Below, one piece after another: positions 30,501 through 50,276 of a stretch of 64,000 nucleotides of DNA (the first letter of the stretch is position 1; every line of letters starts with the position of its first letter). Both the position numbers and the translations under genes were made by a program. The DNA comes from an uncultured Acidobacteriota bacterium (GTDB lineage Bacteria; Acidobacteriota; Blastocatellia; RBC074): contig CAWCKY010000002.1 in NCBI GenBank assembly GCA_963796275.1, forward strand, positions 576,001-640,000, in the 5' to 3' direction. The notes beneath the pieces were generated by a model. The model had not been told where the DNA came from, made no database searches, and saw only the letters and a list, made by a program, of their open reading frames with translations.

Positions 30501-30539
30501 GGTTTGCCATAGCATCTTGTTTTTCATTATGCGTCTCAT
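27528..30539 (-). CDS. TonB-dependent receptor-like outer-membrane protein with Gly-rich loops (start 30527 or 30539)
   Basis: Carboxypeptidase-regulatory N-domain, RNSALDARNAF, NFAPRLSVAW, terminal FGF; poly-Gly/RGG inserts. Confidence 0.85.
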   Translation of the reverse strand: MRRIMKNKMLWQTLLGIVLLTSTLYGQTAVTLRGQVIDELGAALKGANVSVSTGEEGKRTVTSNSRGEFTISNLPPGIYILIVEYKGFQTYVENGIEPASMNSPLKVVMKVAAVNESTDIPADGKGVSVEPDQNLTGIVLNEKMIQELLPETEEEMIEFLQALAGGTGNAQIMIHGFRGGRMPPRESIMQVRLNQNLFSPEFSSGGGDGRIEIITRPGSGEWRGNVSFGFRNSALDARNAFALVKPELDQQRYTFFFGGPVIPKRLDFSANVDWVPTDGSGLVSATTLDGLFTANVPAPSRSTGYSLRSGLFINKRNMLRMNYNYRGSERTNSEFATGGFAGGNFGGGNFGGGGGFGGRGGGGGGGGGFIGGGFNSSGTGGSLMPPDRASNSESANHSLSFSETFLINTRLVHEARLRVQQETSRTLPVMQAVAIDVLDAFQGGGSTRSSDSRTNTIEFQDSLTTTLKKHTIKVGLQLEQQNVRDLNLNNFNGTYSFSTLDQYGRALMGEPVSAALFTINRAVNGGDPSLRYSQYEASWYMNDDIRLSQSLTISLGLRHEFQQNLADKLNFAPRLSVAWSPFRNRKTVIRSGGGLFFNRLSANAYANALRYIEQAQETITIFNPIYLDPIPANLSVLSPSINRVQQSSTREVLDPNLRAPYNISGMLSLEHQLPRALVGTLSYNINRGVHLFRARNINAPLPETGERPDPAQGNVIATESGGKSIRHELAFGFSRRFSQRFMFFSNYRLAWARDDAAFPANNYDLSSEWARSFSDRRHSFNMLLMVNLPWSLRVTPNLFVNSGAPFNITSGVDNNLDTQFSDRPAGIGRNSDLPAMLYPLIPLPGRTVRIAGGSTMTLLDYLNAYFPSGLKAEGPGTFNANIGISKIFGFGQRNGVQAGNMSNAGETGFIGAEAGGQAGGRIGQGGRRGGGGGRRGSGGGGGRGSLENPESARFTLRFALNISNIFNHVNFGQYGGVLGSPYLGHPSNAGAPRQLNLNIMFGF

Positions 30540-30868: not shown

Positions 30869-30930
30869 TTATGTTCCCGCAGGCTGTTATAACGATTAAT
30901 GCCTCTTCTATCCGGGATATAATCGGTGCG

Positions 30931-32823
30931 ATGAAGAGCCAGCGCCCATTATTAAAATTGATCTCGAGCAGCCAGTTTATCGTGACTGCTCTGATGTTGT
31001 TTTTGCTGCCGCTGTTGGCAGTCCTGCAATACCGCTGGCTGGGCGAGTTGAGCGCAAGTAAAAGCGAGCAGATGAAGACGCACATGCAGGCGACGGCGAC
31101 TCGGTTCGCGCAGGATTTCGATCAGGAGATTACGCGCACATATGTAGCATTCTTGCCAGTTCAGGAAATGAAGAACGAGGATAAGCTGAACGCTTATGTG
31201 TCGAGCTATGATCGTTGGAGTAAATCGGCTTCATATCCCGGGTTGGTTAAATCCGTGTTCCTCGCGCTCACCGACGATCGGAGGCAGCTGCATTTGCATG
31301 AGTTAAACCGCGAAGCCCGTAAGTTTGAAATACACGACTGGCCGCAAAGGATGGTGACGCTGCACCATAAACTGGCAGAGCTTACTCGCAACTCGCCTCC
31401 TTTAGGCTCACCTGTACCCGATAGAAATGAACCCCCTTCGCCACGGCTGCAGCTGTTGGATGAAGAGCTGCCAGCTCTGGTGACGATGCTGGTCGAGCGA
31501 CCGCCCCTGATGAGAACCGACTTTACCTTCGCGGCATCGCATCTGGTTGGATTCACCATCGTAGAGTTGGACCTGACTCACATTCAACAAGAGATATTGC
31601 CATCGCTGATAAAGCGCCATTTCCTTTCCGATGTCGGAAGTAACTACGACATATCCATCGTCTCCGGTATAGATCAAAAGCGCATCATCTATCAATCAGG
31701 CTCAATTACCGGGACGTCGGCCGGCTCTGTATCGACGAATGCCGACGCCAGCGCCCGCCTCTTCAGCCTGCGCCCTGACGAGCTTCGTTTCCTACTGCGA
31801 GGCCGCATGCGACGCGGCGATTCCAGAGACGTGAACAGGTCTGTCCGGAGAAATGGGCCCGCCGCACCAGTCGTGGGACCGAGAGGGCTCTGGGAAGGCG
31901 GGCAACAGGGACTCTGGCAAATCCATATCCGCCATCGAGCCGGATCGCTTGAAACTGCCCTGAACAGCGTGCGCCGCCGGAATCTGCTCATCAGCTTCGG
32001 AATCCTGGGACTGCTCGGCGCTAGCATCGCACTCCTGATCATCTCGGCGCGGCGCGCACGCCGTCTGGCCGAACAGCAAATGGATTTCGTAGCCGGCGTA
32101 TCGCACGAGTTGCGCACTCCATTGGCGGTAATCGAATCGGCTGCCTATAACTTGGACAAAGGTGTCATCAGGGCTCCGCAACAGGTTCAGAACTACGGAG
32201 CGTTGATTCGCAAAGAGACCGGGCGTCTTAAGGAGATGGTCGAACAGATACTGGAATTAGCGGGAGTGCAATCGGGGAGGCTGCAATATAATCTTCACGC
32301 TGTCAGCATCAATCGAATTCTGGATGATGTGCTTTCATCATCGCAACCTCTATTGGCCGAAAGCTGCTTTCAGATCGAATGCGACATTGCATCTGAACTG
32401 CCGCCAGTAATGGCCGATCGGACGGCTCTCGCACGGGCCATCCAGAACCTGATCAATAACGCGATGAAGTACAGCGGCGCAAGTAAGTGGATCGGATTGA
32501 GTGCGAAGGCCGTTGAAACCGCAGACGGTCAATCGGTGCGGATAACAGTCGCCGATCACGGCATAGGTATTCCTGATGAGGAGCTTTCACAGATATTCGA
32601 ACCTTTTTATCGCGGAAGCGCAGCCAGAGCCGCGCAAATCCACGGCAACGGTCTGGGGTTGAGCCTGATTAAAAATATCATCGCAGCGCATCGGGGCACT
32701 ATTGACGTTAAGAGCTCGCCGGGCACGGGCAGCTCTTTCGTCATCAATCTGCCGGTGATGGCAGCGGCTCAGCTGAATAATAGTAGTGCACCAACCGTCT
32801 CAAGCGAGTTATCGTATGAGTAA
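30931..32823 (+). CDS. Membrane sensor histidine kinase
   Basis: Two TM segments; H-box VSHELRTPL; N-box NLINNAMKYS; G1 DHGIGI; F-box IFEPFYR; G2 GNGLGLSL. Confidence 0.95.
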   Translation: MKSQRPLLKLISSSQFIVTALMLFLLPLLAVLQYRWLGELSASKSEQMKTHMQATATRFAQDFDQEITRTYVAFLPVQEMKNEDKLNAYVSSYDRWSKSASYPGLVKSVFLALTDDRRQLHLHELNREARKFEIHDWPQRMVTLHHKLAELTRNSPPLGSPVPDRNEPPSPRLQLLDEELPALVTMLVERPPLMRTDFTFAASHLVGFTIVELDLTHIQQEILPSLIKRHFLSDVGSNYDISIVSGIDQKRIIYQSGSITGTSAGSVSTNADASARLFSLRPDELRFLLRGRMRRGDSRDVNRSVRRNGPAAPVVGPRGLWEGGQQGLWQIHIRHRAGSLETALNSVRRRNLLISFGILGLLGASIALLIISARRARRLAEQQMDFVAGVSHELRTPLAVIESAAYNLDKGVIRAPQQVQNYGALIRKETGRLKEMVEQILELAGVQSGRLQYNLHAVSINRILDDVLSSSQPLLAESCFQIECDIASELPPVMADRTALARAIQNLINNAMKYSGASKWIGLSAKAVETADGQSVRITVADHGIGIPDEELSQIFEPFYRGSAARAAQIHGNGLGLSLIKNIIAAHRGTIDVKSSPGTGSSFVINLPVMAAAQLNNSSAPTVSSELSYE

Positions 32824-33502
32824 GCGGATTTTGCTGGTCGAAGACGAGCAAGGGCTGGTGTTGACGTTGACCGACTTTCTGCGCAGCGAGGGTTATGCGG
32901 TCGAGGCCGCAAACGATGGCGAAGCGGGATTTCGATGCGCAATGGAAGAAACGTTCGATTTACTCATCCTCGACGTTATGCTGCCGCGTAAAAACGGCTT
33001 CGACGTGCTGCGCGACCTGCGCCAGCGCGGGCTGCAGGTACCCGCCATAATGCTTACCGCGCGCGGCCAGATAGTGGACAGGATTCTCGGCCTGAAACTC
33101 GGCGCCGACGACTATCTGATCAAACCTTTCGACATGGGTGAATTACTCGCGCGGATCGAAGCTATCCTGCGGCGCTCGCCGGTAGTGAGTGCGAACGGGT
33201 CGGATGTTTATGTTTTCGGCGGTGTGCGCGTCGATTTTCGCCGCGCAGAGGTGACGCGGGCCAATCAGGTGGTCGAACTGGCAGCCCGGGAATACCACCT
33301 GCTTCGCTACTTCATTGAACACCGCGAGGCGACCATCACCCGCGATGAATTACTGAATGAAGTTTGGGGTTACGACTCAATGCCGGTGACGCGCACCGTT
33401 GACGTACATGTAGGTTTGTTACGTCAGAAACTCGAAACCAACCCACGCCATCCCCAGTATTTTCTTACCATCCATGGGCTCGGGTATAAATTCGTCGGTT
33501 GA
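32816..33502 (+). CDS. OmpR/PhoB family response regulator
   Basis: LLVEDE, LDVMLP, GADDYLIKPF, wHTH TRTVDVHV..LRQKLE..G.GYKF; overlaps the HK stop codon. Confidence 0.95.
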   Translation: MSKRILLVEDEQGLVLTLTDFLRSEGYAVEAANDGEAGFRCAMEETFDLLILDVMLPRKNGFDVLRDLRQRGLQVPAIMLTARGQIVDRILGLKLGADDYLIKPFDMGELLARIEAILRRSPVVSANGSDVYVFGGVRVDFRRAEVTRANQVVELAAREYHLLRYFIEHREATITRDELLNEVWGYDSMPVTRTVDVHVGLLRQKLETNPRHPQYFLTIHGLGYKFVG

Positions 33503-33532
33503 TGGGGGAATGAGATTCAACACACCAGTCGT

Positions 33533-34696
33533 TCACCGGTTAGACGCAGTAATTTCCGCTCCCCAATGTACCAGCCGCTTAACGCAGTGCGCCACCTGAT
33601 CAAGCGCCCCATCGCCTTCGAGCAGGACAGGGTGATGAAGAACCAGCATATTAGCATCAGCGCGAGTAGCTTCCGTTAGATCTCCTGCTTTGCGGAAACG
33701 GCGGGAAGATCGGCAGAGATGAAAGGCTCGGAAACCGCCGTTAAAATCTATCCCTTCAGCCCTGGCAGCCTGTACAAATCTTTCCCGAGAAAGCCCTCTG
33801 AATCCTTCCGGCTCGTATCGAAATCCGAGTTTATAATAACCGGGTGAAGTCGATGATATCCGGTTAGCCAATAAACGGAGCCCAGTTACGTCACTCAGTC
33901 GGTCTGCCAATTTTGTAACAGCAGTCTCTCGCTCTCGATTTCTCTCATCCAGTCTCTCCAATTGGGGAAGAAGGACCGTCGCCTGCAACTCCGAGAGCGG
34001 ATAGGCATGGTTACCGCGATTACAATAAACCTGAACACGCTGTTTGACTTCCGGAGACGAGGTCAGTAAAGCGCCCCCACGCCCGGCGGTGAGAAGTTTG
34101 CTTCCACCAAAACTGATAACACCGATATCACCCCAGGTACCGGCCCTGCGCCCTTCAATCAATGCTCCCGGCATCTGACAGGCATCTTCAATTACCGAAA
34201 GACCATGCGCACGAGCTATCGCGGTGACTCTCTCCATGGAAACCGCGCCACCGTGAAGATGAGAGACCAGGATGGCTCGAGTGCTCGGGCTGATGGCTTC
34301 GGCAAGGAGGTCCGGGTTGAGGTTCCAGTTCTGCGGATCGAGATCGATCAATACCGGCCGTGCGCCGACCGCGACTATATCATTGAAATTCCCGATAAAA
34401 TCATAGCCCGCCAGAATAACCTCATCGCCCGGCCCGATCTGCAGAGAGCGCAGCGCCAATTCGATAGCAAAGGTTCCGCTGCAGCAAAGTTCCACAAATT
34501 CGATCTCGTGATATGAAGCCAGTATATCCGCCAGCAGGCGACTATTAGGCCCGTGATAAAGTCCCCACGTACCGTCGATGATTGCACGTTCGATGGCGAG
34601 CGACACCTCTTTCGACGCGGGCGGCCACAATGGCGGGCCTTCTGGGCGAATAGATTCTCCACCAAGTATCGCGGGCAGTTCTGTTTTATCCGTCAT
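33533..34696 (-). CDS. DegT/DnrJ/EryC1/StrS family PLP-dependent aminotransferase (start 34696 or 34711)
   Basis: PAILGG, SGTFAIELAL, GPGDEVI, IEDACQ, SFGGSKLLTAGRGG (PLP-binding Lys). Confidence 0.9.
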   Translation of the reverse strand: MTDKTELPAILGGESIRPEGPPLWPPASKEVSLAIERAIIDGTWGLYHGPNSRLLADILASYHEIEFVELCCSGTFAIELALRSLQIGPGDEVILAGYDFIGNFNDIVAVGARPVLIDLDPQNWNLNPDLLAEAISPSTRAILVSHLHGGAVSMERVTAIARAHGLSVIEDACQMPGALIEGRRAGTWGDIGVISFGGSKLLTAGRGGALLTSSPEVKQRVQVYCNRGNHAYPLSELQATVLLPQLERLDERNRERETAVTKLADRLSDVTGLRLLANRISSTSPGYYKLGFRYEPEGFRGLSRERFVQAARAEGIDFNGGFRAFHLCRSSRRFRKAGDLTEATRADANMLVLHHPVLLEGDGALDQVAHCVKRLVHWGAEITASNR

Positions 34697-34838
34697 AATC
34701 CGTCGTCGCATTCGGGCCAGTCCACGGTGAATCGATGCTAACTCCCAAACTTAACCTAGAAAATCTTGTCAACCGGCCACTCTTGTTTCATCATTCCCAA
34801 AATTATTCACTTTATGATCAGATGGATTGGGACATTTT

Positions 34839-35933
34839 ATGAACAAAATTCGTTTTTTGATGATAGGTGGTTTTCTGGGAGCCGGCAAGACTACTACTCT
34901 CGGCCGTTTAGCCAGGGATTATATGAATAAAGGGCTGCAGGTCGGCATCGTGACGAACGATCAGGCTACGGACCTGGTGGATACTCAGAATCTCCGCCGT
35001 CAGGGATTCGATGTCGAGGAGGTGCCGGGAGCCTGCTTCTGCTGCCGCTTCGATGATCTCATCTCGACGATCGGCCGGTTGAGCCAGAATCAAACGCCCG
35101 ACGTGATCCTGGCGGAACCGGTGGGAAGCTGCACCGATCTGGTGGCCACGGTTGTACAGCCGCTCAAACAGTTATATCCCGACCGTTTTCGGATCGCGCC
35201 GTACTCGGTGATCTTGAAGCCCAGCCACGGCCGTCGAATCCTCCGCAATGAAGCGGAGGCGGGGTTCTCTCCGAAAGCGGCCTATATTTTTCGAAAACAG
35301 CTCGAAGAAGCCGATGCCATTCTTCTTAATCGCATCGACGAATTGACTTCCGCAGAAGCCGATGAATTGACGACTCTGGTAAAAGAGGTCAATGCCGATG
35401 TTCCGGTCCTGCGCATCTCCGCGAAGACCGGTCAGGGTCTCGACGCACTGGAAGAGTTATTAGCTCAGGATGGGAACTTCGGCCGCCGCATCCTCGATCT
35501 CGATTATGATATTTATGCCGCCGGTGAGGCCGAATTGGGATGGCTGAACAGCAGCTTGAAATTCTCGAGCCCCCGTGAATTCGAACTCGACGAATTGCTC
35601 CTCGAAATCGTCCGCTCTCTGCGCGACCGTCTCGGCTCGCAGGGGTATGAGACGGCTCATCTGAAGGTCATCGGATTGTGGGAGGGATTTTTCGGTGTCG
35701 CCAATCTGGTGAGTAGCGACAGCAATCCTGAGCTCTCGCTTCCATCGCACAGCCGCGTTCGTGAAGTTGATCTGATCGTCAATGCCAGAGTCGCGACCGA
35801 TCCGGGCATTCTGGAGCGCTTCGTAAGTGAAACGGCACTTAAGCTGGGAGAAGCAAGAGAAGCTCAGGTGCAATTTCACCAGACACAAAGCTTCCGCCCA
35901 GGCCGGCCTGTTCCGACTCATCGGTTTTCTTGA
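34839..35933 (+). CDS. CobW/COG0523 (G3E) metallochaperone GTPase
   Basis: Walker [16 protein letters not shown], CxCC metal motif [25 protein letters not shown]. Confidence 0.88.
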
Positions 35934-35944
35934 TCGTTGGTTCG

Positions 35945-36890
35945 TTATTTTGACGTCAATAGTGCGAGAGACCCCAGGCCGTAAAAGGTGTATTCAGGGA
36001 TCTGTTTCGCCGTCCCAGACAGCACCTCTAAACCCGCCATCATCGAGCTCAAGTTGGCTGACAAATCGCCGGCTTGCGTCCGCATCGATGCTGTGGGTCA
36101 AGTTCAGATGTTGAGCAGTCAGAATACCGGTGAAGGTTGACAGCAGATCGCAAACTGGAATTTGCGTGTTCGCGCGAAAACCACCTTCATCTCCTTTTAC
36201 CTTTGCCAGATAATCCTCAATCCCCTGCAGAATATCCGTCTCAATCGCCTGAAATCGTTTGAGCAGAACTGCGGCGGCGGCAGTGGGGTTCGTGCCGCTG
36301 CGCTTCATCGGGCCGATCTCCACGAATCCTCCGTCATCCCGCCGTCTGGATAAGAGGAACTGTACGATCAGATTCACAGCGGGCGGCGTTCTTCCAAGCA
36401 TTTCATAGCAAAGCACGGCCAGAAATGTGTGATAGGTGCTGCTAGAGCCTCCCTCGTGTGTCCTGGCATATCCGCCATCCGAACGACGGAACGTCTCCAA
36501 CGCCGTAGACAGCTCAGAGATCAATACATCGGCATCGTTCGCAAAGGAGGACGTATTCCCCGTCAGTTGGACGGTGATAAATGAATAGAACCAGCTCACG
36601 AGATCGATCAAGCTATATTGCTGTTTCGCGGCGACTGTCTTCAGGTAATGCTCGACCTGTTGGGAGCGCAAGCCATTCAGCGCATTCAGGAGTGCCAGCC
36701 CGCGCACGGCGAAACTGGTGTAGTAGAGATCGGATCCACCGCTACGACCCGCAAAGCCGCCATCAGGCCGCTGGAAGTTTAGGATAAGTTTGATGTGCCG
36801 CGCGGTACGCTCAGCATCAAGGTCCTTCAATCCTGCTGCCAGCAGTCTGGTCAAGTCGAGAAGGAAACTGTTTTGTGGTTCGCCGATCAT
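35945..36890 (-). CDS. Prenyltransferase/squalene-oxidase-repeat protein (geranylgeranyltransferase-beta-like single barrel) with a +1 frameshift at 35997-35999
   Basis: Repeats QRPDGGFAG, SDLYYTSF, RRSDGGY, STYHTF, DDGGF, DLLSTF. Removing one G extends the C-terminus as DPEYTFYGLGSLALLTSK to a stop at 35945-35947. Confidence 0.82.
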
Positions 36891-36997
36891 TTGGATTCGA
36901 AGGCATGGCCAGAGAGGCGCGGAGAGAGAAAGAATCGCTTCAAATAGCTATCTTCCTCTCCCCTTCCGTTTCTCTGTGCTTCTGTCGCAGTTTTCAC

Positions 36998-38833
36998 CTA
37001 ATTGAGCACATTGAGCGCAACGAGGTCTCGGGCTATCTCGGGCTCGGTAGATTCATCTGCGAGCGCGGTGTCGACCAGGAAATAAAGTAATTCGCGAAGC
37101 TCATCGGGTTCTACTTCATCGGCGATCGCCTCGGCTCTCTGGCGATATTTCTCAATCAGCGTTCTGGCTTTTTCGAAAACCCGGCATGATTCATAGATGC
37201 GGGCTACTCTGCCAGCGCTCCGCTCATCACGTGAACCGGTCGATATCAGGCCTATGAGCTCTTCTCTTTGCGCTGGCGATGCAGCTTCGAGCGCCAGGGC
37301 AAGCAGGAGCGTCGGACGCATTGCCATGACATCCTGTCCGACGATGCGCTTGTTTTGAAGATCGGTCGACCAGTCCTTGAGATCGTTGATGATCTGAAAC
37401 GCAACTCCGAGATTGCGTGAGAAGTTGGTCACCATCTCCTCGTATTTCTCTACCGGACCAGCCAGGCGCAGACCGGCATATAATGCCGCTTCGAAGGCGG
37501 GCGCTGTCTTGAGGGCATAAATTTTGAGAGCCTCGATGGGCTGAATACTTATCTCTTTCTCCTTATTATCACGCCAGAGGAGTTCGGCGCCTTGCCCTTC
37601 CGCAAGCTTCACGTGCGCCTCTGAGAGACGCTGCAGAATTGCAGCTACGGCTTCGCAGGGCAGATCGCCGCCGGCATTGGCTATTAACCGGTAACCCAAT
37701 CCGAGCAAGTAGTCGCCGGTATTGATGGCGGTGGAAACCCCATAGCGCCGGTGGAGCGTTTGATGGCCGTAGCGATACGCGTCATCATCCTCAATATCGT
37801 CATGCACGAGCGAAGCCTTATGAAATGCCTCCATCGCCATCGCTACGCGACGCACAGAATCGGGAACTTCCTCGACTTTCCGATCATCGCCTGACTCGTC
37901 CGGTCGCGCCGACGGCGCGCCCCGTAGAGCATCATAAGCAGCCAGAGTAATAAATGGACGGAATCGTTTTCCGCCTTTGACCAGCCAGTCGTAGGCGATT
38001 GCCTCGGTGCCAGCTACGGGATCGGCGGCATAGACAGATCCGCCGCCCTGCGATTTACTGCTGCGCAACCTCGGCAGTAGAGCCGGGAAATCTTCGCCGA
38101 ACATGTCGTTGGCGGCACGCAGCAGGGGGACGTAGGTCCTCGTTTTGACCGCAGGCTTCTCCTGATAGGTCTCCAAAACTTCCAGGACCCAATCATTATC
38201 AACTGTGGTGCTCTTGCAGTTGCTCGAATGTAAGGGGATCGCGTAAGCGGGGACACCGCTCTGAACAACCTTCTCGAAAGCTTTTTCGAGGACATTGAGA
38301 CAGGCCACTCCGAGAATGCCATCGATGTATCCGCTGACGATAACCTTGAGCACGATCGGCGTCCCTTCCGCGACCATGATCTTGTAGCCGAGCTTCTCGG
38401 CCTTGATTTTGAAATCGCCGATAGCGCAGGCGCCGCAATCCTCGCAGTGGAGGCCTAACTCGTCGTAGTGAGCGCTACAGGCCTCTACATGCTTGAGGCA
38501 ATGTGGTAAGAGAAAAATTCGTTTATTGAAGGGGATCGAGATGAACTGCTCCTTCCAGAAACCATTGCCGAGCATCACCATAGCGAAACCCAGATATCCT
38601 TGGTCTAGGCCCATTTTCTCAAGCAGGGCTTGCCCGTGAGCCTCCAGTTCTTTTTTGCTCAGCGGGCGGCTGCGATCGATGTCGCGCACGTAATGGAATG
38701 CCTCTGCTCTTATTCTCTCCCTGAGGTCAGGAGTCTCAGGATTCAGTTTGAGCAGTTTGCTCCCGAGCTTCGGCTTTGCCGGTGAATCCGGTTTGACAGC
38801 GACATCCAAGGTTCCTGAAATGAGATCAGACAT
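36998..38833 (-). CDS. DUF116 (Cys-rich) domain fused to a trans-polyprenyl diphosphate synthase
   Basis: N-domain LLPHCL..C..CEDCGACAIG..GVAC..PL.SSNC; synthase motifs GGKRFRP, FARM HDDIEDDD.YR, GQ, KTA, SARM variant FQIINDLKD. Confidence 0.88.
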   Translation of the reverse strand: MSDLISGTLDVAVKPDSPAKPKLGSKLLKLNPETPDLRERIRAEAFHYVRDIDRSRPLSKKELEAHGQALLEKMGLDQGYLGFAMVMLGNGFWKEQFISIPFNKRIFLLPHCLKHVEACSAHYDELGLHCEDCGACAIGDFKIKAEKLGYKIMVAEGTPIVLKVIVSGYIDGILGVACLNVLEKAFEKVVQSGVPAYAIPLHSSNCKSTTVDNDWVLEVLETYQEKPAVKTRTYVPLLRAANDMFGEDFPALLPRLRSSKSQGGGSVYAADPVAGTEAIAYDWLVKGGKRFRPFITLAAYDALRGAPSARPDESGDDRKVEEVPDSVRRVAMAMEAFHKASLVHDDIEDDDAYRYGHQTLHRRYGVSTAINTGDYLLGLGYRLIANAGGDLPCEAVAAILQRLSEAHVKLAEGQGAELLWRDNKEKEISIQPIEALKIYALKTAPAFEAALYAGLRLAGPVEKYEEMVTNFSRNLGVAFQIINDLKDWSTDLQNKRIVGQDVMAMRPTLLLALALEAASPAQREELIGLISTGSRDERSAGRVARIYESCRVFEKARTLIEKYRQRAEAIADEVEPDELRELLYFLVDTALADESTEPEIARDLVALNVLN

Positions 38834-38959
38834 AGAGTTCTCCTACAGATCAGATAGTACACCGCCGGATTTACTTTTAGGTATCGAACCCGAGCCTCGC
38901 GGCCGACTGGCGAAGACCCGAGATGAGCCCACAAGTAATTACGGCGAACGGTAATTAGT

Positions 38960-40840
38960 TTAAGTACGAGCCCGCGCATCACTTGAAACAAATGCGAATG
39001 CGCGTCCCAATGCGCCGACCGTGAAGATCAAAGGGTAGAGCCGTTCAAAGTACCAGAGGTTGGCGAAATAGAATCCAATCGGAGAGGCATTCAGGAAACC
39101 TCCATCCTCCACGCGCTCGACCAGCCAGCGAATACCGCGGGCGAGGGCTTCATTCGCACCGGCAACCTCTCCGCAATCTATCAGCGCATCGATCGCTAGT
39201 GCCGTCTCCTCGACGCTCGAAGGAACGCCCGGGTTACCGCCCCAGCCGCCATCCTCGCATTGGCAGGCAATCAACCATCGGTAGCCTCGCCGGGCCGGCT
39301 CGCCGTCATTCAACCCCAAATCGCGATATGCGGCCAGCACGCGGGCGGTTCCATAAACCGGGTTTTCATCATCCGGAGCGTGTTGATTGCCGAACCAGAG
39401 CGGAAGCCAGGACCCATCCTGCCGTTGAATTCCCTCGAGAAACCGAAACCCGAGCCGACTGGCGCGTTGGAGCTTCCGGGGAAGCTCCCGCAAATTTTCC
39501 CCCACTTCTCTGCCCTTTGCTCCCGCAGCTGAGCTGTGCGCCACATCCTTCCAGGCATTGAGCGCGCGCAATGCATGCGCTGTGATGTCTGCACTGCTGC
39601 GGTCAAAGGGGAGATGCCCCCAGCCGCGGCAAAACGTGGGCCAACCACCGTCGCGGTTTTGCAGGTTCAGCAGCCACTCGAGGCCGGCTATCGCAGCATC
39701 TGTCGACTCCGCCGTCGCGCCCAGATTTCGCAATGCGATCAACGCCCCAGCCGTATCATCCGCGTCGGGTACGGCGCCAGGAAGCGGCGTCCAACCCCAT
39801 CCTCCCGGCGCAGCAGCTGTGAATGGGTGGATCGAACGGTATTGCTGATCGAGCATCCACTGGCGCAGTGGACCCGCGAATTGATCGAAGCGCTCGCCGG
39901 CTTCGCAAAGTGCGTTGATCGACAGGGTAGTCACCCACGTCGAGAGATTCGTATCGATGGGCCAGCTTCCATCGGGCCGGACCGCCTGCACCAGAAAATC
40001 GATCCCCTTCTGAGCCACCGGATGTGTGGCCAGCCCGGCGCCCGCCAGACTCATCGTGACAAAGCTCACCAGCGGGGTAGCTTCAAGAAATCCGCCGTTG
40101 GCGGGTTGAATTGCCTCGAGCTTCCGCAGCGCACCCGGAATCGCAGTCTGCCGAATTGCGCGAAGAACCGGGTTGCGCGACCCGCGCCGTGAGAATTGAA
40201 CGATTCCCAGTGCGATGAGGGCGGGCAATGCATAGCTCACCACCGGCAGGTTGATCCATTTGTAGGCAGAAGCAGGAAGACAGGCCAGTTCGAAAGGAAG
40301 CGGAGGCGCTTCACTCCATTCGATCAACCCTGCCAATGCGCAACAAGACAATATAGGGACAGAAAATGTGCGATCCTGGCCGTACCGCGCGCGAACTGCC
40401 CGTGCCAGCGTTTGCGGGTCGCGCCCGCCCGCGATGCCTTCCAGATAACGTTCCGCCCGCCGCAAACTTTCATCAATTTGCTCTGATGAATCAAAATTCT
40501 CTTTCCCCAGCGTCATTGCTGCGCGGCAGAGCATGGTAGTTGAAATATTCGAGAAACTTCTGATCGTGTCGCCCCAACCGCCGTCGCCATTCTGATGATC
40601 CAGCAGCCAACGAACGCCTCCGGTAATGAGCGCCGAAAAGCGATTTCGATCGATGAGAGCCAGAGCGCAGACCGCCGTCGCGGTAGAAAGTGAAGAACTC
40701 GATAGTTCACCGGTCCAGAACCCTTCGGGACTGCGCTCAGCAAGCAAACAGGATCGGGCCTTGAAATAGGCCGCTGTGAACCGCTCCGGTTCGATTAGCG
40801 ATTCGCTCACGGAGATTGATCTTTTCGCGCTTGGAGTCAT
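38960..40840 (-). CDS. Squalene-hopene-cyclase-like class II terpene cyclase
   Basis: DxDD motif PDADDTA; QW repeats QNGDGGWG, QNRDGGWP, QRQDGSW and QCEDGGWG; PGGWGW; SSVEETALA. Confidence 0.88.
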   Translation of the reverse strand: MTPSAKRSISVSESLIEPERFTAAYFKARSCLLAERSPEGFWTGELSSSSLSTATAVCALALIDRNRFSALITGGVRWLLDHQNGDGGWGDTIRSFSNISTTMLCRAAMTLGKENFDSSEQIDESLRRAERYLEGIAGGRDPQTLARAVRARYGQDRTFSVPILSCCALAGLIEWSEAPPLPFELACLPASAYKWINLPVVSYALPALIALGIVQFSRRGSRNPVLRAIRQTAIPGALRKLEAIQPANGGFLEATPLVSFVTMSLAGAGLATHPVAQKGIDFLVQAVRPDGSWPIDTNLSTWVTTLSINALCEAGERFDQFAGPLRQWMLDQQYRSIHPFTAAAPGGWGWTPLPGAVPDADDTAGALIALRNLGATAESTDAAIAGLEWLLNLQNRDGGWPTFCRGWGHLPFDRSSADITAHALRALNAWKDVAHSSAAGAKGREVGENLRELPRKLQRASRLGFRFLEGIQRQDGSWLPLWFGNQHAPDDENPVYGTARVLAAYRDLGLNDGEPARRGYRWLIACQCEDGGWGGNPGVPSSVEETALAIDALIDCGEVAGANEALARGIRWLVERVEDGGFLNASPIGFYFANLWYFERLYPLIFTVGALGRAFAFVSSDARART

Positions 40841-40858
40841 CTTGATAACCAAAAATGT

Positions 40859-42367
40859 TCAGGCAAATAGCCTTCCCGATTTTCGGACGAACTGCATCCT
40901 CCACTGCAGTACCTGAAATTGGCCGGTGAACTGGATGAACAGTCGTCTCCAGATACTTGCTCCCGCACCCGTCTGGTTATCCCAATACATTTTGGGAATC
41001 CATTTGAAATTCAGGTTGTAGGCGAGTCGGAAAAGCCGCCAGTGCATCGGAGTCATCTCTTCGATCTTGAAATGATCCCCCAGTCCGGGGATCACTGGTG
41101 AGTAGAAAATCGGGAAGATCACCAATCGTTCATTGTAGAGGTCTTCAATCCAGCGTACCGTCTTTTCGACGTGCTCAGGGGTTTCCCCCGGCAGCCCCAA
41201 AATCAGGCTTATCAATGGGAAGTAACCCGCCTTGATCAGCCGGCGCACCTGCTGGTCGCAAAGCTCGCCCCACTCCGCCGGTTTGTATGGGCGGATTTTG
41301 CCCCCCTTCTGGTTCATATCCAGCAGTTCTCCGCTGGCGGTCTCGACGCCCAGATTAACCCAGAGAAAGTCGTGGCGCTGGCCGTCGACGAGCAGGTCGT
41401 GAACCTCGCGCAGATCGTCATCGGAGTATTGAGCGACGGAGATAATATTGGCGTGATCGATCTGGATGAGTTTCAGCGGCTTGATCTCTCGCAGACGGCG
41501 AATGAGTGCCTTCAAGACGGGTGGATTCACGGGGGCGCGATGCGTATTGCCGTAGCGAAAGAAATCTTCGCTCAACGCGCAGATCGAGGTGACTCCGCGT
41601 TCGACATTCCGTTCGACGTCGGAGGCAACGACATCGAGAGGTATGTGGATCATCCTCTCCGCGGCAATCGTGCAGAACTGGCATCCCTTGCCGCAGCCGC
41701 GGCTGATCTCCACAACCCCCATTGAGGTCGGCCCGCAGATCGCCGGAATCTCATTCTCGCGCGCGCTCCTGGCGGAAACCACGGGCGGCACTTCTCTCCC
41801 GTCTATCAAATCATGAAACCAACCTGCCGCCTGCGTCTCGGCATAACCCTCGACCACCAGATCAATTCCCAGGCTCTCTCTCGCATGCTCATTCTGGGCT
41901 AATTGCCATGCGCCCGCGCCTCCCGCCACCACTTTGAATGATCCTGTCCGCTTCTTCTCTTTCAGTTGATGCAGCAGCCGCTTGTACCAGGTGTGGGTAT
42001 AGAGAGTCCCTCCGGCCATATCTGACATCGTGCTGTTGGACATGCCGCGTCCGAGCGGATCGGAAGATGAGACGGCGACGATCTTCGTCCTCGATCCGAC
42101 ACAGGCTTCCAGGTCTTCCGGAGCGCAGAGGATAACGTCATCGCGGTTGAACCCATCGTTCAGGAGAGCAGCCTCGATGCGCCGCAAGCCCATAGGCGCC
42201 TTGCGTGCCGCAATACCATCGGTCGGCATTCGGGGCGCGATCATCGTGCGCATGATAAGCTCGGGCACCGATGTGGTCTGTATCGTCCCCATCATTCCAT
42301 CGAAAAGCACAGGGTAATCAGCCATCAATGTCCGATCTGCCGTTAAAACTACGGGATATCCGCTCAT
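40859..42367 (-). CDS. Radical SAM protein with a putative B12-binding N-domain, resembling archaeal GDGT ring synthases GrsA/B
   Basis: CxxxCxxC in EISRGCGKGCQFC; N-terminal VVLTADRTLM.DY, APMGLRRIEAAL, DPLG and GGAGAWQL; later LGVETAS and ILGLPGET. Confidence 0.8.
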   Translation of the reverse strand: MSGYPVVLTADRTLMADYPVLFDGMMGTIQTTSVPELIMRTMIAPRMPTDGIAARKAPMGLRRIEAALLNDGFNRDDVILCAPEDLEACVGSRTKIVAVSSSDPLGRGMSNSTMSDMAGGTLYTHTWYKRLLHQLKEKKRTGSFKVVAGGAGAWQLAQNEHARESLGIDLVVEGYAETQAAGWFHDLIDGREVPPVVSARSARENEIPAICGPTSMGVVEISRGCGKGCQFCTIAAERMIHIPLDVVASDVERNVERGVTSICALSEDFFRYGNTHRAPVNPPVLKALIRRLREIKPLKLIQIDHANIISVAQYSDDDLREVHDLLVDGQRHDFLWVNLGVETASGELLDMNQKGGKIRPYKPAEWGELCDQQVRRLIKAGYFPLISLILGLPGETPEHVEKTVRWIEDLYNERLVIFPIFYSPVIPGLGDHFKIEEMTPMHWRLFRLAYNLNFKWIPKMYWDNQTGAGASIWRRLFIQFTGQFQVLQWRMQFVRKSGRLFA

Positions 42368-42370
42368 ATA

Positions 42371-42528
42371 CAGTTTTCAGTTTTCAGTTTTCAGTTTCCA
42401 GTTTCCAGTTTTCAGTTTAGTTTCCAGTTTTCAGTTTTCGGGTTTGTAAACAGTTTCAGTAGAGACCGAAATCTGAATCCTGTCGGACAATAGGCACAAC
42501 AAGGGCAAACTAAAAACTGAAAACTGAA
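42371..42528. repeat. CAGTTTT heptamer array (about 10 units) with an inverted partner array
   Basis: (cagtttt/cagtttc)n at 42371-42439; inverted aaactaaaaactgaaaactgaa at 42507-42528; ctgaatcctgtc occurs twice. Confidence 0.85.
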
Positions 42529-42543
42529 TCCTGTCAACCGAGA

Positions 42544-43581
42544 TCAAATTTCAAGGCTATCCAACTCATCCATGAGTTTGTCGAGGTCATCTTTTTCGGA
42601 AGCGGCCCTTCCAACCTGGCGCTTGGGAATACCGATCGTGAGCCCCACCGCAGTGCGTCCATCTTTAATCAACTCCACGTCACGCTCCTGGGCAGCCAGC
42701 TCGATTGCGCTTGGCGCGCCGAAAAGCCGGGAGAGATCGATCTTCAGACCTCCTGGCCCTTCACCCGGCGCTCCGGCGATAGCCGGCATCTTGTGCTCCG
42801 GAAAGATGATGGCATTCTCCGGACAGACCCGGCTGCATGCAGGGCAACCGCGCTTACAGTTATCCTGATTCTCGACGAGAATCCGCTCCTTCCGATCAAT
42901 CCCGTAAACGCCGAAGAGACAAAAATCGATGCACTCCAGGCAGTTGGTGCATCGGCTGTAATCAATCACCGGATACCAGCGAGTCTCTTTCGACTCTCCC
43001 AGCACAACCGGTCTGGTCTTATCATCAGACGCCAAAAATCGCTGCATCTGATCCGGTTTCGGATCGCCACTCAGCCATCCAGTCAATGGAACGAACTCGA
43101 TCGAAGCCTCTTTCGCGATACGCTTGACTTCATCGACATAGACATTCGGTTCTTCATAAGCCCTGAGGTCGAGGCAGAAAAGATGGCGGTCAGGCGTCTC
43201 GGCGGGGCCGATAGCATTATTTCCCTCGTCATTTCCCGAGTCACCCTCTCCTATCGCCTCGTCTTCGCCTTCTTCGCCAGATTCTTCTCCCAGGCTTTTT
43301 AAAAGAGTGACTCCTTTTTTCCCGCTGATACCATTGCGGTCGAGGAGCCAATGTGCCGCTCTCGGGTAGAGCCACGAGAGGAGAATCAAATGGCCTTTTA
43401 CGGAATTCAGGTATAGCAGGCCGGTGTCACCCGGTGAGAGGTCATAGACGTGTGGCACCACCGCGAAATCGATCCCGGGTTCGAGCAGCAGGGCCGTAGC
43501 GATCTCTTCTTCGAGATGGCGTTTGGCGGGGTTTTTACCGCGCGTCTGCGAAAGGACGACTGTTATGCGATTTGCAGCCAT
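42544..43581 (-). CDS. 2x[4Fe-4S] ferredoxin-domain protein with an uncharacterised N-terminal domain
   Basis: CTNCLECIDFC and CKRGCPACSRVCP; acidic linker. Confidence 0.85.
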   Translation of the reverse strand: MAANRITVVLSQTRGKNPAKRHLEEEIATALLLEPGIDFAVVPHVYDLSPGDTGLLYLNSVKGHLILLSWLYPRAAHWLLDRNGISGKKGVTLLKSLGEESGEEGEDEAIGEGDSGNDEGNNAIGPAETPDRHLFCLDLRAYEEPNVYVDEVKRIAKEASIEFVPLTGWLSGDPKPDQMQRFLASDDKTRPVVLGESKETRWYPVIDYSRCTNCLECIDFCLFGVYGIDRKERILVENQDNCKRGCPACSRVCPENAIIFPEHKMPAIAGAPGEGPGGLKIDLSRLFGAPSAIELAAQERDVELIKDGRTAVGLTIGIPKRQVGRAASEKDDLDKLMDELDSLEI

Positions 43582-43601
43582 AATGAAATTGTTCGGAAGT
43601 C

Positions 43602-44057
43602 TTACTCGTGCATCTGCCCCTTGATCTGGCGTTGCGTATCTTCCCAGGTGCCTTTCAAATGCTCCATGTAATCCACAGCGCTCAGCAGAGTGGCGTTTTT
43701 CGGTGCGAAGTCGAAGAGCCAGCCTTTTCCATAATTGTCGACATTGATCGATGTCGGGTCCCTCATAAGTTCACGGTTGAAGCGCAATATCAGTCCGTCT
43801 GCAGGCGCGTGAAGCGTAGAGACAGCCTTCGAGCTCTCAATCTCTCCCATCTCCTGCTTGGCTTGAACTGCAGTATCAGCTTCTATGCTCCAGTCTAAAA
43901 AGTAAACATCTTGAAGTAACCGGACGGCGAAGGCGGTGAACCCGACCCGGTATGCGTCCGTCACGGCTTGAAACCACATATGGCTTCGCACATAAAGGCG
44001 ATCGGTCGGAAACCGGGCCTCGTATTTTCCCATCATGAATATGAGGTATTCAGACAT
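43602..44057 (-). CDS. Glycine-cleavage H-protein-like lipoyl carrier
   Basis: Y..SHMW, VGFTAFA, lipoyl-Lys motif GEIESSKAVSTL.AP, INVDNYGKGWLF. Confidence 0.85.
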   Translation of the reverse strand: MSEYLIFMMGKYEARFPTDRLYVRSHMWFQAVTDAYRVGFTAFAVRLLQDVYFLDWSIEADTAVQAKQEMGEIESSKAVSTLHAPADGLILRFNRELMRDPTSINVDNYGKGWLFDFAPKNATLLSAVDYMEHLKGTWEDTQRQIKGQMHE

Positions 44058-44183
44058 CAGCGGTCATTGCCAAATGTTCGCGGTCAGTCTACCACGCAAT
44101 CTGGCTTATGGCACAGTGACGTGCAAGCGATTTGGCCTGGCAGATTCAATGAGGTTATTATCACAATATTGATGGAGGTGTTT

Positions 44184-45275
44184 ATGGATACTTTAGACTC
44201 ATCAAATCGGAGAAGGATTGCTGGAATGATCTTACGATCGGCAGTCTGTGCGATCGCAATCTATAGTCTTGGGAGCGGAGTTTTAAGCACATATGGCGCG
44301 CAATCTGACGGCGCAAAGCAGAAAAAACCTGACGATCAGCAAAAAAGTGAAAGCAAGGGTAAGGCGGATGGGGCCCAACACGGTTCGGCATTACTGTGGC
44401 AAGAGCCGGCCGACATCGAGCGGCGCGACCTTTTCTACGGGATCGGCGGGCAAGCTGGCGCACCCGACCCGGCTGACAAATTGACATTCGCGGGCGATAA
44501 AGGCTCACCCAAAGACTCGAATCCCAAGATTGACGTCAAGGATAGCCGCGGGCGCGAATGGACGGTGAAGTTCGGGCCCGAGGTCAAATCGGAGACGGCT
44601 GTCTCGCGCATCGTCTGGGCGGCCGGATATTACGTGGATCAAGTCTATTTCGTCGAGAAGGCGACAATCGAAGGATTCAACCGGATCGAAACACGAAATA
44701 TGCGGTTTGAACGCGAAGACGACGGGTTAAAGACCGTTGGCCGCTGGGACTGGAATACCAATCCGTTTATTGGCACGCGCGAACTCGATGGTCTCAAGAC
44801 CCTGATGGCGCTCGTCCAAAACGTAGATCTATCGATACTGAACAACCGGATCGCGCGCCCCAAAAAGAGCGACGATAAGACTCAGACGGATATCTACTAT
44901 GTGAATGACCTGGGAGCGGCGCTCGGTTCGACAGGGGCCTGGTACACCCGGTTTCCCTGGGTTGATAATGCTCGATCCGAGAGCAAGGGTGTCCCCAAGG
45001 ATTACGTAAAGAACGGATTCATCTCAGGAATTAAGAATGGCGAGGTCGACTTCCACGTCACGAGGAGGCGAACTAATCGGATACTCGACGGCGTAAAAGT
45101 CGAAAATGCCAGATGGATGGGAAACCTTCTCGGTCGCTTGTCAAAAAAACAACTCGCGGACGCGTTCCGGGCCGGCGGTTTCAGCGACGCTGAAGTGGAT
45201 ACTTATGTGGATGAGATACGTAAACGGATATCGCAGCTTCAAAACCTGGAGCGGGATGATCTGATGACTCGATAA
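44184..45275 (+). CDS. Exported hypothetical protein with atypical kinase-like (HipA/PI3K/CotH-like) motif pattern
   Basis: GGAGGT RBS; signal-like N-terminus; PK..V.D..G.EWTVKFG..E.AVSRIVWAAGY, N.DL...NN, YVNDLG. Confidence 0.6.
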   Translation: MDTLDSSNRRRIAGMILRSAVCAIAIYSLGSGVLSTYGAQSDGAKQKKPDDQQKSESKGKADGAQHGSALLWQEPADIERRDLFYGIGGQAGAPDPADKLTFAGDKGSPKDSNPKIDVKDSRGREWTVKFGPEVKSETAVSRIVWAAGYYVDQVYFVEKATIEGFNRIETRNMRFEREDDGLKTVGRWDWNTNPFIGTRELDGLKTLMALVQNVDLSILNNRIARPKKSDDKTQTDIYYVNDLGAALGSTGAWYTRFPWVDNARSESKGVPKDYVKNGFISGIKNGEVDFHVTRRRTNRILDGVKVENARWMGNLLGRLSKKQLADAFRAGGFSDAEVDTYVDEIRKRISQLQNLERDDLMTR

Positions 45276-45429
45276 TCGCTGAAGCCGATTAATGCGAGCG
45301 AATTTGCTGCGAAAATCTGTGTAATACTCGTAAGTAGGGGCAAGTTGGGGGAAGCGACCTGAGAATCGTAAAGTGATCATCCGCCAGGACGCTTGTCGCT
45401 CATGCGTTCAACAGCGGTTGCTTTTTATC

Positions 45430-46305
45430 TTACCTTTGAATGACGCCTCGATCTATCACACTTCCGGTTTCGCTGATCGCCTGAAAACTGATGCAGCTGT
45501 GATCTGCATCTATCAGCATAAAATGGTTGTCCTCATCGTAACTCTGCGCGCGAATCGGGCTATTGATGTCTACACCGCCGCGGCGCGACTTACCTCCGGC
45601 GCCGGTGACAAAATATTGTATCCCCTGCTGAAGCTTGGTGCGCTCGTAAAAGTGGTCGTGCCCTGAAAAGACGACATTGACCCCATAACGGACGAGCAGC
45701 GGCTCCAATTTCCTTCTCAATTCCGCGTCCGACCCATGCCGTTTGCCGGAGGAATATATAGGATGATGAAATACAGCAATCTTCCAGTGCGCGGTGGAAG
45801 CCTGTAGCTTCTGCTCAAACCACCCTAACTGTGTTAAATCCAGATCGGTAGAATCGAGCATGAACAACTCTACCAACCCGCCGCCCTGCTTCAACGTAAA
45901 ATAGTTGTGCCCGCCCATGTTGAATAGGGGATATTGGCGCTGATCCTGCCGACCCTCTCGCACGTCGTGATTCCCCAGAACAACGTGGAAGTTTATGCGC
46001 TCCGCCAGCAACTTGGCGAACGGGCGCTCGAAATGCTTGATGAAGTTGCGTCCGCTGCCATTGGGATAGATGTTATCACCGGCTGAGATAACAAAATCGA
46101 ATGGATTGCGCTGATGCGCCGCGAACATCTGTTGAGCTATACCAGTCTGGTCTCCGTCACCGGTTCCCCAATCGCCGATGACCGGAAATCGTACCCGGTC
46201 CTTCACCGGATCGGCCCCAAAAATCGATAGCGGTTTGATGACGGCCCCTGCCGTAATGCCCGCTAACGAGATCAAGGCCTGCCGACGTGTGATCTTATTA
46301 TTCAT
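45430..46305 (-). CDS. Calcineurin-like metallophosphoesterase (purple-acid-phosphatase-like) with a Tat signal
   Basis: TRRQAL; GDWG, GDNIY, LGNHD, HHPIY, GHDHFYER. Confidence 0.9.
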   Translation of the reverse strand: MNNKITRRQALISLAGITAGAVIKPLSIFGADPVKDRVRFPVIGDWGTGDGDQTGIAQQMFAAHQRNPFDFVISAGDNIYPNGSGRNFIKHFERPFAKLLAERINFHVVLGNHDVREGRQDQRQYPLFNMGGHNYFTLKQGGGLVELFMLDSTDLDLTQLGWFEQKLQASTAHWKIAVFHHPIYSSGKRHGSDAELRRKLEPLLVRYGVNVVFSGHDHFYERTKLQQGIQYFVTGAGGKSRRGGVDINSPIRAQSYDEDNHFMLIDADHSCISFQAISETGSVIDRGVIQR

Positions 46306-50085: not shown

Positions 50086-50276
50086 GATTTTGTTCCTCCG
50101 CGCTGTTTTGGTTTCGATGAATGAAATTTGCCGGCAAGCCGCGAGCTGCCGGAACTCGCGCCCTAGCCGCATGCACAGCCTTAATCACCGGCATGATGAG
50201 GTATTGCGATGCTTACCGCGCGCACACGCATCCTCGCGTTGAGCATGGATGCAATGTCCGCAATGTCTGGAGTGTC

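Follow-up and report, generated by a model that had tools for sequence, protein, structure and literature searches.

A group of proteins related to squalene-hopene cyclase (SHC) was defined as 'SHC-like' by Santana-Molina et al. in 2020 (PMC7306690). Only the members from Planctomycetes keep the catalytic residues; the genomic context of these members points to a precursor different from squalene, while their products were considered likely to be polycyclic triterpenes of unidentified structure. According to McShea et al. 2025 (PMC12414744), the clade is found in PVC, FCB, Spirochaetota and Acidobacteriota, its function is unknown, none of its members is reported as assayed, and it is sister to the epoxy-polyprenyl cyclases. 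A cyclase of this kind is encoded in the stretch of DNA analysed here, 64,000 nt from an uncultured Acidobacteriota bacterium (GenBank assembly GCA_963796275.1, contig CAWCKY010000002.1, positions 576,001 to 640,000; hereafter, the window), as part of an eight-gene cluster. Besides the cyclase, the cluster specifies a fusion of a DUF116 domain to a polyprenyl synthase (DUF116::PPS), a GcvH-like protein, an iron-sulphur (Fe-S) protein, a radical SAM enzyme, a single-domain alpha/alpha-toroid protein, a CobW-type GTPase and a DegT-family aminotransferase (Table 1). It is considered reasonably probable that this conserved cluster forms a self-contained route to a cyclic isoprenoid lipid which runs beside, rather than through, the hopanoid pathway. 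A preliminary description of the window, made from the sequence, had stated that no characterised pathway is known to have this gene set; in agreement, neither such a pathway nor a function for the SHC-like protein or the DUF116 fusion was found in the literature searched. The gene set is real, but the novelty implied in that description was overstated, since the cyclase clade had already been published as being of unknown function, with a hint of a non-squalene substrate (PMC7306690, PMC12414744).

Comparison with the closest described systems sets the cluster apart to different degrees. The window cyclase shows no essential difference from the published SHC-like clade, of which it is a member: both involve a divergent SHC homolog that keeps the DxDD motif, is distributed over PVC bacteria and Acidobacteriota and lies beside prenyl-transferase genes (PMC7306690, PMC12414744). 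Hopanoid biosynthesis (SHC, HpnCDE, HpnH, HpnG, HpnO, HpnI/J/K, HpnP) has in common with the cluster a class II DxDD cyclase, a radical SAM enzyme, an aminotransferase and, in relatives of the cluster, a glycosyltransferase; in contrast, the window cluster lacks SQS_PSY, HpnH and HpnG, its cyclase fails the hopene model, and it adds the prenyl-synthase fusion, the GcvH-like protein, the Fe-S protein and the G3E GTPase. The sporulenol pathway of Bacillota (HepS/HepT, YtpB, SqhC) likewise has a polyprenyl synthase dedicated to supplying an SHC-family cyclase, squalene not being used (PMC7306690), whereas the window cluster has no YtpB-type enzyme, its cyclase belongs to another clade, and extra Fe-S, GcvH-like and GTPase genes are present. 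The closest published relatives are the epoxy-polyprenyl cyclases (Lon15, AtoE, Bra4, PlaT2), a relation taken from PMC12414744; these act on head-to-tail prenyl substrates that are epoxidised and are encoded in actinomycete natural-product clusters, while the window cyclase has an intact DxDDTA motif and no epoxidase is encoded nearby.

As judged from its sequence, the window cyclase is a non-canonical SHC, since it scores below the cut-off of the hopene-cyclase equivalog TIGR01507 (106.7 bits against 431.1), has 25% identity to the canonical SHC of its own genome and stands in a separate clade in the tree described below. It also fell below the cut-off of the squalene-cyclase subfamily model (134.6 bits against 322.7) and reached no more than 78.5 bits with the SHC of Alicyclobacillus, the structure of which is solved. 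On contig C4 of this genome (9.46 Mb) lies the canonical SHC, which matched PF13243 at 431.7 bits, as against 84.9 bits for the window cyclase in the same comparison. A quick maximum-likelihood tree (LG+G4, 35 rows, with long branches flagged) was built from 29 SHC-like sequences (49 of 78 were omitted for speed), five canonical SHCs (that of the same genome and those of four planctomycete genomes) and one further cyclase. The SHC-like group was split from the six other cyclases with an SH-aLRT value of 100, and the window cyclase stood inside it, paired with a Pyrinomonadaceae homolog and grouping with sequences from Gemmata, Gemmataceae, Planctomycetaceae and Verrucomicrobiota. The Gemmataceae genome G002 carries an SHC-like cyclase, a canonical SHC and a third cyclase, the latter two being across the split. 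With membership assigned by taxa and description rather than against the papers' own sequences, the window cyclase is taken to belong to the published SHC-like clade. The DxDD motif that had been claimed for it is real; it reads VPDADDT, and its aspartates (D363, D365, D366) were invariant in 12 of 12 diverse homologs, as were H426 and Y500. In an alignment to chain 1gsz_A of the solved SHC, these residues matched its segments DVDDTA, DLPNH and YLYGT. These Asp, His and Tyr residues, which we take to be catalytic, would make the enzyme a class II (protonation-initiated) cyclase. Two further observations were made on cyclase-bearing genomes. In that of locus L021, the canonical SHC reads as broken (G004:C18:74420-76303, with four TGA and one TAA codons inside the match, which is under the cut-off) and the SHC-like frame is intact, so this genome may represent a loss of hopanoids with the orphan cyclase kept. 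Two contigs labelled 'uncultured Alcaligenaceae' (L015, L019) bear a planctomycete-type cluster, and are probably mis-binned since L019 neighbours a Gemmatales sequence in the tree.

To define the conserved gene set, a scan of species-representative genomes was used, which gave at least 579 confirmed cyclase relatives; the best 80 loci, chosen by cyclase similarity and mostly from Planctomycetota, were kept, and partners were counted in them by tblastn with the window proteins. Of the 58 loci that offered 2.5 kb of room or more, 38 had a DUF116::PPS gene starting no farther than 1.6 kb downstream of that for the cyclase. The 13 genomes with a non-adjacent fusion each carried a single DUF116 gene at another site, in 11 cases in a frame of 580-699 aa. 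When 301 Acidobacteriota genomes, evenly sampled, were examined, 10 had the cyclase and 44 had DUF116; a DUF116 frame of at least 558 aa was found in 10/10 cyclase-bearing genomes and in 0/291 of the others, the remaining 34 DUF116 frames being no longer than 516 aa. These counts include the unpublished genome G053 (9/9 if it is excluded), and the ten cyclase-bearing genomes represent eight families and are not fully independent. On the grounds of adjacency, of the 13/13 genomes with the gene elsewhere and of this co-occurrence, the cyclase and DUF116::PPS are an obligate pair. The Fe-S and GcvH-like genes were found upstream of the cyclase in 24/57 and 21/57 loci, respectively (at least 3 kb of room), the GcvH-like gene always adjoining that of the Fe-S protein. 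A B12-type radical SAM gene was upstream in 5 of the 57 loci with room, the toroid gene was downstream in 9/47, and the GTPase and DegT genes were present in 9/47 and 7/47 loci, respectively (at least 6 kb upstream). The Fe-S/GcvH-like pair is thus a frequent component and the remaining genes are accessory. When the 34 loci with both flanks available were considered, one (L007, from Pyrinomonadaceae) had all seven partners and five Schlesneria/Planctomycetaceae loci (L028, L033, L037, L048, L070) had six. The arrangement is non-random, since the same genes recur by the cyclase across phyla. The preliminary description had named two outcomes that would count against its interpretation, a gene set not conserved together and a cyclase lying within the canonical SHCs; neither was observed, given the recurrence just described and, for the cyclase, the score of 106.7 bits against 431.1 and the SH-aLRT 100 split.

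The constant partner of the cyclase, DUF116::PPS, has unusual features in both its halves. The synthase domain matched PF00348 at 162.3 bits (cut-off 27), and its first motif, DDIED, has the aspartates expected of a trans-isoprenyl synthase (D345, D346 and D349, invariant in 42/42 homologs). Ala/Ser occupies positions -5/-4 of this motif in 42/42, which presumably fits products of C20 or longer, and a GGKRxRP motif is present. However, the RRG expected of such synthases after the first motif is replaced by RYG in 42/42 homologs, and the DDxxD expected as the second motif by NDxxD in 40/42, while three prenyl-synthase paralogs of the same genome retain both RRG and DDxxD. The second Arg of RRG presumably plays a role in binding isopentenyl diphosphate. 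Because of the NDxxD and RYG motifs, the synthase domain may not be an ordinary chain elongator. The DUF116 domain has seven Cys residues invariant in 42/42 homologs, and its structure model (predicted local distance difference test, pLDDT, 82.8) has a flavodoxin-like fold; a fold search with it gave no specific match, the hits being generic Rossmann/flavodoxin-like ones (best Foldseek E 9e-3, best VIA Z 5.9). A role in electron transfer was predicted for DUF116, as a Cys-rich domain of flavodoxin-like type, by Makarova et al. 2015 (PMC5898192), who also mentioned a fusion to a polyprenyl synthetase in Pirellula staleyi. The stand-alone proteins (arCOG02078/COG1852) share with the window domain the Cys-rich flavodoxin-like character and the predicted electron transfer; in archaea they have two N-terminal transmembrane segments and adjoin sulfite reductase or ArsA-type genes, whereas the window domain is fused and appears to be soluble (PMC5898192). 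A figure legend in a 2025 preprint places a DUF116 gene beside IspH, SHC, HpnH and polyprenyl synthetase genes in a Bipolaricaulota isolate.

The NDxxD and RYG motifs together with the seven-Cys DUF116 domain support, but fall short of proving, a non-elongating, redox-coupled reaction. That DUF116::PPS is not a chain elongator at all, which would make it a new route to cyclase substrates, is judged improbable. The near-constant motif changes, set against the DDxxD and RRG of the same-genome paralogs, speak in its favour, as do the fused redox domain, the dedicated Fe-S protein encoded nearby and the presence of the cluster in three genomes with no SQS_PSY match. There are also precedents for an Asp-to-Asn change at the second-motif position, which has been suggested to lie behind the emergence of the irregular coupling performed by chrysanthemyl diphosphate synthase (cited in PMC10960109) and has been tied to synthase-derived terpene synthases (PMC7484799); on the other hand, the same mutation in a mealybug enzyme abolished its irregular activity (PMC10960109). 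In addition, the Asn would still be able to bind Mg, and the GGKRxRP motif is present. A more specific version, in which the fusion would be a new isoprenoid-coupling enzyme that joins prenyl units irregularly, with a reductive step performed by the seven-Cys domain and fed by the Fe-S and GcvH-like proteins, so providing the SHC-like cyclase with a substrate independent of squalene synthase, is offered as a long shot; if true, it would imply a new family of polycyclic lipids, possibly including orphan biomarkers.

In the self-contained route proposed here, the synthase domain would provide the isoprenoid substrate, probably of at least C20 and probably other than plain squalene, and the cyclase would protonate its terminal double bond via the DxDD motif, ring closure following. 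The toroid protein would bind the lipid or pass it on, and the radical SAM enzyme would tailor it. Electrons would pass from the 2x[4Fe-4S] protein and the lipoyl-type GcvH-like protein either to the radical SAM enzyme or to DUF116 with its many Cys residues; the CxCC GTPase would mature a metal site, and DegT, with a GT4 glycosyltransferase in some relatives, would build a head group of the amino-sugar type. What the preliminary description assigned to the ferredoxin, the GTPase and the second barrel is likewise inference. Its claim that the cluster supplies its own prenyl chain is made uncertain by NDxxD and RYG; as a whole, that interpretation is partly supported, being reasonable but unproven. 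What the window adds is a complete eight-gene version in a genome with a full hopanoid pathway, a clear separation of the core from the accessory genes, the signature formed by NDxxD and RYG, and examples in which squalene synthase had no match. Many bacteria of soil and water, among the Planctomycetota, Verrucomicrobiota and Acidobacteriota, carry SHC-like cyclases, and, as cyclic terpenoids fossilise, the product of the cluster could explain orphan geological biomarkers. The coexistence of the cluster and a normal hopanoid pathway in one genome provides a clean internal contrast, and the question is directly testable by co-expression.

Several points weigh against the route proposed. The lipid product and the enzyme activities are hypothetical for every member of the clade. 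The supply of the chain is not assured, because the synthase domain deviates from elongating synthases, and the roles suggested for DUF116 and the Fe-S protein derive from Cys patterns and context, because the fold matches were generic flavodoxin-like ones only. Six of the 34 both-flank loci had none of the seven partners, and partner genes were often non-adjacent. The B12-type radical SAM enzyme was not found (E <= 1e-10) in five of five cyclase-bearing planctomycete genomes. Finally, SQS_PSY genes are present in 20/23 other cluster-bearing genomes and a canonical SHC in 4/5 planctomycete genomes; squalene is therefore available in most hosts. The three genomes with no SQS_PSY match (two from Brocadiia and one from Phycisphaerae, 4.5-5.7 Mb) are metagenome-assembled genomes (MAGs) of unreported completeness.

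With squalene available in most hosts, the cyclase might instead take the squalene that HpnCDE, encoded at another site of the genome, would supply and form a non-hopane triterpenoid, the neighbouring genes only tailoring or regulating this product. The hopanoid genes do lie outside the window, as had been stated: contig C4 of the same genome carries, besides the canonical SHC, HpnH (543 bits) and, some 5 kb away from the SHC, two SQS_PSY genes of the HpnC/D type. The SHC catalytic residues are kept in the window cyclase, and the gamma domain of the clade is picked up by a 'triterpenoid' model (PMC12414744), both of which would fit such a substrate. Nevertheless, this explanation is thought unlikely: the cyclase is strictly accompanied by a prenyl-synthase fusion of its own, the clade is sister to the epoxy-polyprenyl cyclases, which act on head-to-tail substrates (PMC12414744), and there are the three SQS_PSY-negative genomes. 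A canonical SHC was over the cut-off in none of four genomes tested (the same two Brocadiia and one Phycisphaerae MAGs and a Pyrinomonadaceae MAG). From the lack of SHC matches in these four and of SQS_PSY matches in three it follows that the cluster exists without the hopanoid pathway, and in some genomes possibly without any squalene synthase.

The GcvH-like protein scored below the cut-offs of both relevant equivalogs (TIGR00527, 76.4 against 115.85; NF002270, 90.1 against 117), and a canonical GcvH is encoded elsewhere in the genome (C4:952207, 146.4 bits); by sequence, the former appears to be a paralog of true GcvH. Its E-x-x-K motif is preserved, E74 and K77 being invariant in 18/18 homologs, and K77 is presumably the lipoyl site. 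The Fe-S protein bears the motifs CxxCxxCxxxC and CxxxCxxCxxxCP, with all eight Cys invariant in 25/25 homologs. Its AlphaFold2 model (pLDDT 64.1) was confident for the N-terminal domain, the Fe-S part being poorly modelled. A fold search with the N-terminal domain returned generic CheY/flavodoxin-like matches only (best VIA Z 8.1), indicating no function, and a search of a protein atlas with the Fe-S protein retrieved nothing but similar proteins, in clusters named 'ferredoxin' from Planctomycetota. Prediction of a complex between the two proteins, with two clusters included, gave a score of 0.48 (runs 0.48, 0.49 and 0.39), the best of three controls giving 0.00. The runs agreed in at least 80% of contacts, with a partner pLDDT of at least 85. 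Of 80 solved complexes, 58 attain the mark used for these scores, as do 2 of 110 mismatched pairs; among those reaching it, scores of 0.60 or less include only 7 of the 80 solved complexes, yet both of the mismatches. These predictions weakly suggest that the GcvH-like and Fe-S proteins pair.

The invariant lipoyl-lysine motif and the constant proximity of the GcvH-like gene to the Fe-S gene could also suggest that, instead of a membrane lipid, the cluster makes a cofactor, prenylated or cyclised, or a group that modifies the GcvH-like protein at its lysine arm. The presence of a pyridoxal phosphate (PLP) enzyme in the same operon would agree with this in Schlesneria-type loci, in which DegT is the first gene of an operon that runs on, in the same direction, through those for the GcvH-like protein, the Fe-S protein and the cyclase to the fusion and toroid genes. 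However, the GcvH-like gene is adjacent in only a minority of the loci, the constant core being the cyclase and the fusion, and the GT4 and major facilitator superfamily (MFS) transporter genes found in relatives better fit a glycolipid; this alternative is very unlikely.

The radical SAM enzyme contains the CxxxCxxC motif and gave a weak match to the B12-binding domain, below the cut-off (PF02310, 17.8 bits against 32.1); source names include 'B12-binding domain-containing radical SAM' and 'YgiQ'. The label 'Grs-like' given to it in the preliminary description was unsupported: no NCBIfam model reached its cut-off (the best was TIGR04013, 66.5 against 251 bits), the sequences in the PDB matched were of RimO-type chains only (E 4e-5), and nothing in either pointed to Grs. 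The B12-type enzyme is an accessory member of the cluster. In 15 Planctomycetota loci (e.g. L009:119-1369, L051:1893-3182, L061:8564-9862) a SPASM-type radical SAM protein of about 424 aa was found, for which no NCBIfam model scored above cut-off and which appears to replace the B12-type enzyme in the planctomycete clusters. Clustering of the open reading frames (ORFs) of the loci showed further, less frequent genes of the planctomycete clusters, which encode a HemN-type radical SAM protein (4 loci), a GT4 glycosyltransferase and an MFS transporter (5 loci each) and two small proteins of no assigned function (9 and 6 loci). Neither a SPASM-type nor a HemN-type radical SAM gene, nor the two small planctomycete genes, adjoins the window cluster, and tblastn found no homolog of the SPASM-type enzyme or of the 188-aa and 180-aa proteins in the genome from which the window comes.

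The toroid protein matched PF00432 at 62.2 bits (cut-off 26.5), has the repeats of an alpha/alpha toroid and gave weak PDB matches to the beta subunit of Rab geranylgeranyl transferase. It has no DxDD motif and no Cys or His that is invariant among 10 homologs, H32 and H154 being present in 9/10. The beta subunits of protein prenyltransferases bind zinc through Asp, Cys and His. The GTPase combines PF02492 with a CxCC motif, as COG0523 proteins do (C70, C72 and C73, invariant in 10/10), and fell under the cut-offs of all named equivalogs (ZigA, CobW and YjiA type). DegT keeps the PLP-lysine motif SK(L)xxxGxGG (the Lys in FGGSK) in 8/8 homologs, and no sugar-specific NCBIfam equivalog reached its cut-off. 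These last two genes form a transcription unit apart from the six-gene operon and are adjacent to the cyclase in a minority of loci, so they might be chance neighbours unrelated to it; this is highly improbable, and is largely refuted by the cross-phylum conservation of the divergent CobW-DegT pair, which adjoins the cluster again, with 49-83% identity, in one locus from Acidobacteriota (L007) and in six from Planctomycetota (L028, L033, L035, L037, L048, L070).

The layout of the locus was established from the ORF listing and Pfam/NCBIfam scans, which confirmed the eight genes as described, apart from small coordinate errors, six of them co-oriented on the minus strand, one (GTPase) on the plus strand and one (DegT) on the minus strand; coordinates are positions within the window (Table 1). 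The intergenic gaps of the six co-oriented genes are 20, 176, 6, 126 and 107 nt, the third being 18 nt if counted from the first ATG of the cyclase gene, which matches the 18-176 nt reported earlier. The GTPase gene converges on that of the toroid protein and is divergent from DegT, as had been described; the toroid gene ends at 35994 rather than at 35945, and the stop codons of the convergent genes are 60 nt, not 11 nt, apart. The 176-nt gap separates the Fe-S protein and radical SAM genes and contains about ten CAGTTTT heptamers and, 70 nt off, three inverted AAACTGA copies, which could be a regulatory or structural element within the operon. A 41-aa Cys-containing ORF in this gap was not taken as a gene; it is probably a by-product of the repeat, as it overlies the heptamers. 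Scans of 33300-45500 yielded promoter-like and terminator-like sites at chance level (7 against 7.2 expected, and 8 against 11.5 expected, respectively).

Table 1. Features of the cyclase cluster and their positions in the window
Feature	Position	Strand	Support
GcvH-like protein, 151 aa, lipoyl-lysine motif kept	43602-44057	-	PF01597 78.3 bits
Fe-S protein, 345 aa: flavodoxin/CheY-like N-terminal domain, acidic linker, 2x[4Fe-4S] ferredoxin domain, C-terminal tail	42544-43581	-	Fer4 family matches, residues 202-259
Heptamer tandem repeat CAGTTTT x10 + inverted AAACTGA x3	42371-42528		Tandem Repeats Finder, score 103
Radical SAM enzyme, 502 aa, B12-binding-like N-terminal domain	40859-42367	-	PF04055 43.2 bits
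SHC-like class II terpenoid cyclase (predicted), 630 aa, DxDD	38960-40852	-	PF13243 136.8 bits, PF13249 69.1 bits
DUF116::polyprenyl-synthase fusion (PPS), 611 aa	36998-38833	-	PF01976 124.3 bits, PF00348 162.3 bits
Single-domain alpha/alpha-toroid protein (prenyltransferase-beta-like), 298 aa	35994-36890	-	PF00432 62.2 bits
COG0523/CobW-type G3E GTPase, CxCC motif	34827-35933	+	PF02492 79.7 bits
DegT/DnrJ/EryC1-family PLP aminotransferase	33533-34711	-	PF01041 217.6 bits

Some minor observations were made on the surroundings of the cluster, the proteins of which have closest relatives labelled Blastocatellia or Pyrinomonadaceae. A histidine kinase/response regulator pair (30871-33502) directly adjoins DegT, and two large proteins with CarboxypepD_reg and outer membrane protein (OMP) beta-barrel domains, of the TonB-dependent type and Acidobacteria style, flank the region (27528-30539 and 46657-50172); no conserved association of the cluster with the two-component pair or the OMP proteins was seen in the other loci. 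A 435-aa ORF (43968-45275, plus strand) is divergent from the GcvH-like gene, which its listed start overlaps by 90 nt. This ORF is without a match in Pfam and is not kept beside the cluster in other genomes; its paralogs in the same genome show 67%, 44%, 30% and 30% identity.

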